Positions 44,795 to 58,059 of a stretch of 64,000 bases of DNA are shown one piece after another (position 1 is the first letter of the stretch; each line of letters begins with the position of its first letter). The stretch comes from Eledone cirrhosa. Lineage: Eukaryota. Under the pieces are notes generated by a model. The model made no database searches. It was not told the origin of the DNA and was given only the letters and a program-made list of their open reading frames with translations. Location of the stretch: NCBI GenBank assembly GCA_964016885.1, contig OZ024743.1, forward strand, positions 291,524,001-291,588,000. The letters are read 5' to 3'. Both the position numbers and the translations under genes were made by a program.

Positions 44795-44946
44795 TCCTTT
44801 TTTTTTTTCGCTATTTAATTGTAAAAGACTATTTGAGTTTATAACTCTATATAAAATATATATGTATATATATGAAGGACACACACACGCACACACACAC
44901 ACACATATATATATATATATATATATATATATATATATATATATAT
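44795..44946 (+). repeat. Left copy of the direct duplication flanking the array (putative target-site duplication)
   Basis: TCC(T)11CGCTATTTAATTGTAAAAGAC...GAAGGACACACACACGC(AC)n(AT)n is repeated at 57874. Confidence 0.85.
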
Positions 44947-45363
44947 ATAAATTGAAACAAAATGAAAACGAAATTTCATTTCTCACTCTTAGTATGGCAC
45001 TTACTTAAATGTAAGTATGCATGTATACGTACATACATATATGTATACAGACGTACATTAGCATGCACATATATATATATACATATATATATACATATGC
45101 ATACAGGTACACATACATATATGCACGTATCAGTTTAGCGGCGCTAACGTCGCTTGGTTCGTTTGTAAACAAACTGAACAGCCTGAATTTATGCCATACG
45201 GTGTTAAGGCAACCACGTCACCTTTTTGTTCAACACTGACACAGGAACGATGTACTAGTTTCAAGCTTGTTAGCTATCATCAGCACTGTTTACCCATCTG
45301 CCAGATAGTTGAACGTTCGAAAGTATATACTTTCCTTATGAAAATTAACGGCTGAGCAGCCTA

Positions 45364-45371
45364 ATTTGCAT
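45364..45371 (-). promoter_or_regulatory. Octamer motif ATGCAAAT (one per unit), candidate snRNA-type distal element
   Basis: ATTTGCAT on plus in all array units and in the diverged copies at ~2862, 25.5-26.5 kb and ~32338. Function is inferred. Confidence 0.5.
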
Positions 45372-45703
45372 ATTGAGTGAGTTAAATCGGTCAGGCATAC
45401 CGAAAACGATAAATTGAAACAAAATGAAAACGAAATTTCATTTCTCACTCTTAGTTTGGCACTTACTTAAATGTAAGTATGCATGTATACGTACATACAT
45501 ATATGTATACAGACGTACAGTAGCATGCACATATATATACATATATATATACATATGCATACAGGTACACATACATATATGCACGTATCAGTTTAGCGGC
45601 GCTAACGTCGATTTGTTCGTTTGTAAACAAACTGAACAGCCTGAATTTATGCCATACGGTGTTAAGGCAGCCACGTCACCTTTTTGTTCAACACTGACAC
45701 AGG

Positions 45704-54700: not shown

Positions 54701-57700
54701 ATACATATATATATACATATGCATACAGGTACACATACATATATGCACGTATCAGTTTAGCGGCGCTAACGTCGCTTTGTTCGTTTGTAAACAAACTGAA
54801 CAGCCTGAATTTATGCCATACGGTGTTAAGGCAACCACGTCACCTTTTTGTTCAACACTGACACAGGAACGATGTACTAGTTTCAAGCTTGTTAGCTATC
54901 ATCAGCACCGTTTACCCATCTGCCAGATAGTTGAACGTTCGAAAGTATATACTTTCCTTATGAAAATTAACGGCTGAGCAGCCTAATTTGCATATTGAGT
55001 GAGTTAAATCGGTCAGGCATACCGAAAACGATAAATTGAAACAAAATGAAAACGAAATTTCATTTCTCACTCTTAGTATGGCACTTACTTAAATGTAAGT
55101 ATGCATGTATACGTACATACATATATGTATACAGACGTACAGTAGCATGCACATATATATATATACATATATATATACATATGCATACAGGTACACATAC
55201 ATATATGCACGTATCAGTTTAGCGGCGCTAACGTCGCTTTGTTCGTTTGTAAACAAACTGAACAGCCTGAATTTATGCCATACGGTGTTAAGGCAACCAC
55301 GTCACCTTTTTGTTCAACACTGACACAGGAACGATGTACTAGTTTCAAGCTTGTTAGCTATCATCAGCACCGTTTACCCATCTGCCAGATAGTTGAACGT
55401 TCGAAAGTATATACTTTCCTTATGAAAATTAACGGCTGAGCAGCCTAATTTGCATATTGAGTGAGTTAAATCGGTCAGGCATACCGAAAACGATAAATTG
55501 AAACGAAATGAAAACGAAATTTCATTTCTCACTCTTAGTATGGCACTTACTTAAATGTAAGTATGCATGTATACGTACATACATATATGTATACAGACGT
55601 ACAGTAGCATGCACATATATATATATACATATATATATACATATGCATACAGGTACACATACATATATGCACGTATCAGTTTAGCGGCGCTAACGTCGCT
55701 TTGTTCGTTTGTAAACAAACTGAACAGCCTGAATTTATGCCATACGGTGTTAAGGCAACCACGTCACCTTTTTGTTCAACACTGACACAGGAACGATGTA
55801 CTAGTTTCAAGCTTGTTAGCTATCATCAGCACCGTTTACCCATCTGCCAGATAGTTGAACGTTCGAAAGTATATACTTTCCTTATGAAAATTAACGGCTG
55901 AGCAGCCTAATTTGCATATTGAGTGAGTTAAATCGGTCAGGCATACCGAAAACGATAAATTGAAACAAAATGAAAACGAAATTTCATTTCTCACTCTTAG
56001 TATGGCACTTACTTAAATGTAAGTATGCATGTATACGTACATACATATATGTATACAGACGTACAGTAGCATGCACATATATATATATACATATATATAT
56101 ACATATGCATACAGGTACACATACATATATGCACGTATCAGTTTAGCGGCGCTAACGTCGCTTTGTTCGTTTGTAAACAAACTGAACAGCCTGAATTTAT
56201 GCCATACGGTGTTAAGGCAACCACGTCACCTTTTTGTTCAACACTGACACAGGAACGATGTACTAGTTTCAAGCTTGTTAGCTATCATCAGCACCGTTTA
56301 CCCATCTGCCAGATAGTTGAACGTTCGAAAGTATATACTTTCCTTATGAAAATTAACGGCTGAGCAGCCTAATTTGCATATTGAGTGAGTTAAATCGGTC
56401 AGGCATACCGAAAACGATAAATTGAAACAAAATGAAAACGAAATTTCATTTCTCACTCTTAGTATGGCACTTACTTAAATGTAAGTATGCATGTATACGT
56501 ACATACATATATGTATACAGACGTACAGTAGCATGCACATATATATATATACATATATATATACATATGCATACAGGTACACATACATATATGCACGTAT
56601 CAGTTTAGCGGCGCTAACGTCGCTTTGTTCGTTTGTAAACAAACTGAACAGCCTGAATTTATGCCATACGGTGTTAAGGCAACCACGTCACCTTTTTGTT
56701 CAACACTGACACAGGAACGATGTACTAGTTTCAAGCTTGTTAGCTATCATCAGCACCGTTTACCCATCTGCCAGATAGTTGAACGTTCGAAAGTATATAC
56801 TTTCCTTATGAAAATTAACGGCTGAGCAGCCTAATTTGCATATTGAGTGAGTTAAATCGGTCAGGCATACCGAAAACGATAAATTGAAACGAAATGAAAA
56901 CGAAATTTCATTTCTCACTCTTAGTATGGCACTTACTTAAATGTAAGTATGCATGTATACGTACATACATATATGTATACAGACGTACAGTAGCATGCAC
57001 ATATATATATATACATATATATATACATATGCATACAGGTACACATACATATATGCACGTATCAGTTTAGCGGCGCTAACGTCGCTTTGTTCGTTTGTAA
57101 ACAAACTGAACAGCCTGAATTTATGCCATACGGTGTTAAGGCAACCACGTCACCTTTTTGTTCAACACTGACACAGGAACGATGTACTAGTTTCAAGCTT
57201 GTTAGCTATCATCAGCACCGTTTACCCATCTGCCAGATAGTTGAACGTTCGAAAGTATATACTTTCCTTATGAAAATTAACGGCTGAGCAGCCTAATTTG
57301 CATATTGAGTGAGTTAAATCGGTCAGGCATACCGAAAACGATAAATTGAAACAAAATGAAAACGAAATTTCATTTCTCACTCTTAGTATGGCACTTACTT
57401 AAATGTAAGTATGCATGTATACGTACATACATATATGTATACAGACGTACAGTAGCATGCACATATATATATATATATATATACATATGCATACAGGTAC
57501 ACATACATATATGCACGTATCAGTTTAGCGGCGCTAACGTCGCTTTGTTCGTTTGTAAACAAACTGAATAGCCTGAATTTATGCCATACGGTGTTAAGGC
57601 AACCACGTCACCTTTTTGTTCAACACTGACACAGGAACGATGTACTAGTTTCAAGCTTGTTAGCTATCATCAGCACCGTTTACCCATCTGCCAGATAGTT

Positions 57701-57873
57701 GAACGTTCGAAAGTATATACTTTCCTTATGAAAATTAACGGCTGAGCAGCCTAATTTGCATATTGAGTGAGTTAAATCGGTCAGGCATACCGAAAACGAT
57801 AAATTGAAACAAAATGAAAACGAAATTTCATTTCTCACTCTTAGTATGGCACTTACTTAAATGTAAGTATGCA

Positions 57874-58059
57874 TCCTTTTTTTTTTTTCGCTATTTAATT
57901 GTAAAAGACTATTTGAGTTTATAACTCTATATAAAATATATATGTATATATATGAAGAACACACACACGCACACACACACACACATATATATATATATAT
58001 ATATATATATATATATATATATATATATATATATATATATATATATATATATATATATA
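57874..58059 (+). repeat. Right copy of the direct duplication flanking the array
   Basis: Matches 44795-44946 apart from one extra T, one G/A substitution and the TA-run length. Confidence 0.85.

Follow-up and report, generated by a model that had tools for sequence, protein, structure and literature searches.

How a tandem array of short, hammerhead-bearing units came to stand between two nearly identical copies of the same 155 bp is the question raised by this locus of Eledone cirrhosa. The array lies in the window, i.e., the whole 64,000-nucleotide stretch of DNA that was analysed. A first-pass annotation of the window had read the arrangement as one insertion event, target-primed at a TA microsatellite, that left an unusually long target-site duplication.

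Structure of the array and its units

The retrozyme array occupied positions 44950-57874 on the minus strand and formed a single arm of 28 units and a 73-bp partial unit. Units followed one another head to tail, with no inversion and no N, from the family's start site 1. Unit length was typically 462 bp; two units were 458 bp, two were 464 bp, and one, unit 21 (54190-54571), was 382 bp, having lost 80 bp of internal sequence between short repeats. Unit position 57, the second fixed start site of the family, fell at 45006-45007 (minus strand), and no array end was found there. Units had a GC content of 0.36, below the 50% taken as the limit for retrozyme units. The array's RNA would correspond to the minus strand, on which the frames of the units were full of stops; plus-strand stop-to-stop frames of 131-133 aa were present in three units.

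Unit 1 carried a minimal type I hammerhead motif (45245-45290, minus strand) with a predicted cut after 45253. The motif comprised stem I, a CUGAUGA core, stem II with a U-U base, GAAA, and a palindromic stem III; the core pattern and stems were matched in 27 of the 28 units. This is the layout that we take to be that of the minimal type I hammerhead. It agrees with the description in the available text of PMC7229834. An Rfam scan at gathering score returned no hammerhead in the window, only a tRNA-like match (21804-21897), and the MFE fold of the isolated 66-nt motif was not a hammerhead (z -0.38). Such failed recognition is in keeping with a weak stem III, and weak-stem-III hammerhead motifs are described in the accessible portions of PMC7229834 and PMC7761336. 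The circular monomer had an MFE of -150 kcal/mol, vs. -104 +/- 4 kcal/mol for 30 dinucleotide shuffles, with internal TA/CA tracts contributing to the self-pairing.

Judged by its sequence, the array fits the definition of a metazoan non-LTR retrozyme, with self-cleavage and RNA circles predicted. It would be a hammerhead retrozyme, that is, a non-coding Penelope-like element with Penelope-like ends. Many hammerhead-bearing Penelope-like fragments were present in the window and the sampled loci. An autonomous partner was sought in 21 regions downstream of GIY-YIG matches; most of these contained hammerheads, none of them matching that of the array unit.

Other elements in the window

The window held an older two-armed copy of the array's retrozyme family (25224-26685; about 88% identical) with three hammerhead motifs, whose short inverted piece lay at 26541-26587. 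More diverged relatives of the unit (75-85%) were found at 2669-3178 and 32109-32675, each an inverted pair. A Penelope-like fragment (18082-19418) contained a minus-strand GIY-YIG frame (Pfam PF01541, E 2.8e-4) adjoining a plus-strand RT-like frame and then a terminal repeat that bears a hammerhead and ends at (TA)n; the fragment had many relatives of 55-95% identity in the sampled loci. Two further RT-like fragments were located at 13997-14452 (plus strand; Pfam RVT_1, E 8e-16) and at 59063-59986 (minus strand; no Pfam hit). Hammerhead motifs of other families were found at 58462-58506 and 2055-2099, both on the minus strand, the latter within a relative of a tandem family of about 310 bp. 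The Rfam tRNA match at 21804-21897 (minus strand, 37 bits) had a 22-nt insertion in the anticodon loop and no corresponding ARAGORN gene; it is either an intron-bearing tRNA or a tRNA-derived repeat.

A direct duplication adjoins both array ends

The 155-bp segment 44795-44949 recurred from position 57874 on as a direct repeat that adjoined both array ends exactly. On the left, the duplicated segment proper (44795-44904) was followed by a 45-bp (TA)n (44905-44949), the probable priming end. On the right, the second copy (57874-57984) was joined to unit position 73 and continued into a 75-bp (TA)n (57985-58059), which is probably the whole original TA run, and then into (GA)n to 58099; all four features are given on the plus strand. 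The copies were 99% identical (BLAST E 2.6e-51 within the window) and differed by one substitution (G44878/A57958) and in one T-run (11 vs. 12 T). At the left junction, ATA at 44947-44949 was also the last three bases of a unit; at the right junction (57874) the microhomology was 1 nt (T). The first-pass annotation was accurate on each of these points: the bracketing by a direct duplication of about 110 bp plus (TA)n, the single substitution and homopolymer indel, and the microhomology at either junction (ATA and T).

Two segment-specific patterns each had two exact matches in the 2,995,841,428-base assembly, both in the window. The duplication is therefore neither a chance match nor a constant part of the array's repeat family, the latter being a possibility that the first-pass annotation had wished to see checked. 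Pattern search of the whole assembly found no third copy of the segment on any other contig and no second haplotype. As the copies were 99% alike and had locus-specific changes in common, one was copied from the other. There were no N gaps in the window. Seven public sequencing runs were considered (best share 0.28): runs X1-X4, compared with 57380-58800, and runs X3 and X5-X7, compared with 44460-44900, gave paralogous repeats only and no junction-spanning record. One X3 contig was identical to 44460-44610 and ended before the duplicated segment. Run X1, whose share was small, was left out of account as evidence.

The description of the segment as unique sequence was wrong: about 64 bp are the end of a high-copy repeat and the rest is microsatellite. 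The repeat end (44679-44858) belongs to an older, different dispersed family (family B) and abuts TA-rich sequence; its last 64 bp or so fall within the duplicated segment, and 44859-44904 is a TA/CA microsatellite mosaic. With its end at the array's TA-rich site, the site has been struck by two repeat families. Family B (also L022-L026) is a high-copy repeat of about 500 bp with 1220 first-look candidates, 40 of which were scored; paralogues were 83-87% identical, the best of them 85-87%. These paralogues included tandem and inverted pieces and had ends at (TA)n, and no hammerhead was found in family B by pattern search.

Insertion of the family genome-wide

The exact left junction of the array (TA plus site 1) had 866 matches genome-wide and its reversed control had none, while the second junction (TA plus unit position 57) had 718 exact matches. 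The family's two fixed start sites, unit positions 1 and 57, lie 56 nt apart. A target-primed origin at (TA)n, as first proposed, is supported by the 866 exact TA junctions at the same unit position.

Two samples of these junctions were parsed. The site-1 sample consisted of the first 100 places on C1 in order (80 loci, 19 further loci, and L031), and the site-57 sample of 40 places chosen because no exact site-1 match lay nearby. Parsing of the first 80 site-1 loci gave 58 closed inverted pairs, 19 loci called direct (one at an N gap), and three open loci, a two-armed share of 58 of 77 closed loci. Among the 58 inverted pairs, 52 ended exactly at position 57, four ended at 53-72, two were interrupted, and in none did the second arm end at site 1. 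The 19 further loci comprised 14 inverted pairs (12 ending at 57, one at 53, and one at 59), four called direct, and one open. The site-57 loci comprised 22 closed inverted pairs, 14 called direct, three open, and one not parsed; 16 of the 22 ended at positions 1-6 and none at 57. No locus in the samples had the identical start site at both ends. Four loci called direct (L090, L096, L158, and L198) were inverted on cross-check, leaving about 32 single-armed loci.

Two fixed 3' ends (a tail) and head-to-head inverted insertions are thus present in the family, and the inverted arm is absent at the array locus. TA adjoined the far end in 66 of the 76 loci picked by the near end only, a preference for (TA)n. 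Where the far end is followed by TA, any short duplication would be invisible.

A rare variant was fixed in all units of both arms at four of 27 two-armed loci with long units; an arm-specific fixed variant was seen at none of the 27. Unit length was mostly uniform within a locus. We infer that each insertion had a single template that was read repeatedly, as by rolling-circle copying, with later homogenisation as an alternative; the sister insertions look as if they were born as multimers from one template.

At one locus (L138, C1:292769103-292789452) a site-1 and a site-57 junction faced each other 20.3 kb apart. The two junctions probably bound a two-armed array with some 43 units, and the 16 units that were read had no substitutions outside the TA tract. 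With 20.3 kb spanned there, the size of the array in the window is not special. Where the far end could be located, all other sampled arrays with about ten units or more were two-armed.

Some sampled loci had peculiarities of their own. At L027 (C2:311743767-311747150) units alternated between 474 and 468 bp, and the 474-bp units carried a variant, forming a two-unit higher-order repeat. L191 and L193, 2.7 Mb apart on C1, had identical insertion breakpoints and an identical far flank, and represent either a segmental duplication or an assembly duplicate.

The long duplication among sister loci

Among 130 closed sister loci, a set with about 32 single-armed members, not one had a comparable duplication abutting both ends. 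The 130 comprised 76 of the first 80 site-1 loci (four were open or gapped), 18 of the 19 further loci, and 36 of the 40 site-57 loci, under a filter that was stricter for the 18 and 36 loci than for the first 76; the window served as the positive control. The duplication was also absent from 31 of 33 similarity-picked loci, these 31 being the ones tested. A screen of 1.71 Mb for the arrangement X-(TA)n-insert-X-(TA)n gave six candidates, of which the window was the sole locus-specific case. The five others were tandem units, family ends, or microsatellite (L055, L112, and L189 as judged by rows only). The survey of other arrays envisaged by the first-pass annotation thus came out against a family mark: the array's duplication is a one-off scar and not a family trait.

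One locus (L088), with an insertion of 58 bp, had at its far junction a 99-bp, 100% identical copy of DNA from 517 bp upstream (1992-2090 and 2566-2664, as oriented). The copy carries the hammerhead of another family and ends before the priming site is reached; it belongs to a repeat whose paralogues are 97-98% identical. As a second case of long duplication, L088 is ambiguous.

Probable growth of the array after insertion

According to the variant table, units 4-16 (46332-52341) contain a block duplication: units 4-9 reappear as units 10-12 and 14-16, with units 4-6 sharing variants with 10-12 and units 7-9 with 14-16. Unit 24 likewise shares variants with unit 27. The two commonest variants of the array, 437C and 206A, were absent from 189 units at 48 sampled loci; 437C was present in nine array units and 206A in five, and each occurred only twice elsewhere, at different loci. 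Private variants that recur in blocks arose at this locus and were spread by block duplication. A donor array with the array's variants was sought and not found; the unit-5 variant pattern occurred singly at 10 other places and was uninformative on a donor. The single insertion event of the first-pass annotation therefore stands for a seed and is not supported for all 28 units, given the block-wise variants private to the array.

Units 1-20 differed from the family majority at 45 of 9236 bases (0.5%) and units 21-28 at four of 3612. This suggests a recent expansion of clean units on the array's right, the only explanation offered for the low divergence of units 21-28.

Origin of the duplication

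The reading that we favor, at a probability of roughly 60%, is that the duplication was made by a Penelope-type insertion primed from one strand at (TA)n, with the free end attached at a point some 110 bp upstream of the TA run. The plus strand would have been nicked within the TA run and its 3' end would have primed cDNA at RNA site 1, yielding a run of several units, probably through repeated passage around a circular monomer. The other strand would then have failed to prime at site 57, and the cDNA end would have been attached, with 1 nt of microhomology, to another copy of 44795-44949. That copy could have come from a distant second-strand nick, or from the free right-hand end copying intact template before joining; both routes give the same product and are indistinguishable. 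Later unequal exchange or slippage would have duplicated unit blocks until there were 28 units.

Several observations bear on this reading. One-sided priming is suggested by the family norm of two inverted arms, from sites 1 and 57, set against the site-1 arm only at the array locus. A nick inside a TA run that stayed whole on the right would leave a shorter run on the left, and the lengths are 45 bp (left) and 75 bp (right). The single substitution in 110 bp accords with the 0.5% divergence of units 1-20. As no sister locus repeats the duplication, the argument for timing at integration comes from geometry. The two-armed state of all other sampled arrays of that size whose far end could be placed (about ten units or more) leaves room for a second arm that was lost at the array locus.

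Such a loss is the core of the strongest alternative, to which we give clearly less weight: a two-armed insertion broke, the site-57 arm was lost, and the right end copied the TA run and the 110 bp from an empty homologue or sister. Two-armed insertions are the norm of the family (58 of 77 closed loci), and the array in the window is the only one without a second arm among the sampled arrays that have about ten units or more and a far end that could be placed. Spacer-less inverted repeats are unstable, and this instability would favor such a loss. A right copy taken from another haplotype would be expected to carry two differences in 110 bp from the outset, although these differences fit the array's own age as well. 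Against the alternative, two events are needed, no remnant of an inverted arm or of a site-57 end was found near the array, and about 32 other single-armed loci have no such copy.

An assembly artefact, in which filled and empty haplotypes were merged to give a false second copy, is improbable. The public runs gave no supporting record across the junctions, and the substitution and the homopolymer difference between the copies are of the kind that alleles might show. However, the window has no N gap, the array-to-copy junction with its homology of only 1 nt would have to exist in a read, the units have consistent block-wise variants, and no third copy lies on any other contig. Less probable still is a programmed long target-site duplication of the R9 type, typical of the family. 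It would account for the exact abutment at both ends, and the 99-bp copy at the far junction of L088 could be counted in its favor, but it is largely refuted by the 0 of 130 closed loci, and the L088 copy, a repeat with close paralogues, does not extend to the priming site. Two independent family-B insertions beside the array, or a chance match, are refuted for all the abundance of that family and its ends at (TA)n, the copies being far closer to each other than to any scored paralogue and having in common both locus-specific changes and the non-family mosaic.

Comparison with known systems

Metazoan non-LTR retrozymes have been described in PMC7229834 (Cervera and de la Pena, 2020), PMC7761336, and 10.64898/2026.07.22.740005 (Li et al., 2026), which are cited here for their available text. 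The array resembles the retrozymes described there in its tandem low-GC units (36% here) with a type I hammerhead and in the dispersal of these units in forms that range from dimers to large multimers. Its 462-bp unit is slightly above the 150-450 bp quoted for retrozymes in the accessible text of PMC7229834. A circular RNA template and Penelope-type mobilisation have been proposed for retrozymes, and the available text of 10.64898/2026.07.22.740005 argues for the Penelope link. Cleavage and circles were demonstrated for published retrozymes, according to the same portions of that literature, whereas the array is known as a sequence. Target-site duplications, when present, are given there as >4 bp; two-armed fixed-end insertions or a 155-bp duplication are not described in those portions.

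Among Penelope-like elements, an anole element has two internal start sites, with both strands cut and extended in vitro (available text of PMC11167929, Frangieh et al., 2024), and a tail, inverted copies, and a TA bias are reported in the accessible parts of PMC8557442 (Craig et al., 2021) and PMC3846280 (Arkhipova et al., 2013). By these accounts, the array's family is alike in its two internal start sites, head-to-head copies, (TA)n preference, hammerhead, and junction microhomology. It differs in that it has no apparent RT or endonuclease gene, in its many whole units per arm, and in the length of its tail (56 nt vs. 30-40 nt). Target-site duplications of Penelope-like elements are, in the same excerpts, 8-10 bp or hidden in microsatellites, vs. 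155 bp here.

Non-LTR insertion is known to produce long duplications on rare occasions, as the available text of several papers records. One in 25 inserts of ZfL2-2 had a 1228-bp duplication (PMC2666801), and Dualen (Dualen-4b_cRei) and R9 make duplications of 900 bp (median) and 126 bp, respectively (PMC9977147). Extra 5' nucleotides derived from the flank have been described at non-LTR insertions (PMC4245944). Going by these texts, such cases resemble the array in having at least 100 bp of host DNA abutting both insert ends and microhomology at the 5' junction. R9 and Dualen duplicate regularly; with one locus vs. 0 of 130 sisters, the array is closer to ZfL2-2 (1/25). A full-text literature search, with supplements and most subscription journals outside its scope, found no report of a >100-bp duplication at a retrozyme or Penelope-like insertion.

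Implications for the family

Taken alone, one scar changes little, its type being known from other non-LTR elements. More tentatively than for the locus alone, we propose that a Penelope-type enzyme may prime one circular retrozyme RNA from both (TA)n strands, one per fixed site, and that when the second priming fails, a distant nick or copying may duplicate >100 bp of host DNA. The locus would then be a captured failure that lays bare the second step, and retrozymes would contribute in a small way to local duplications.

With its hundreds of young insertions, its strict rule of one site per arm, and its variants found across arms, this family makes two questions testable: by what steps Penelope-like elements complete integration, and whether RNA circles serve as the template for retrozymes. 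The 155-bp duplication is an exception to the one-site-per-arm rule, and it hints at the outcome when second priming fails.
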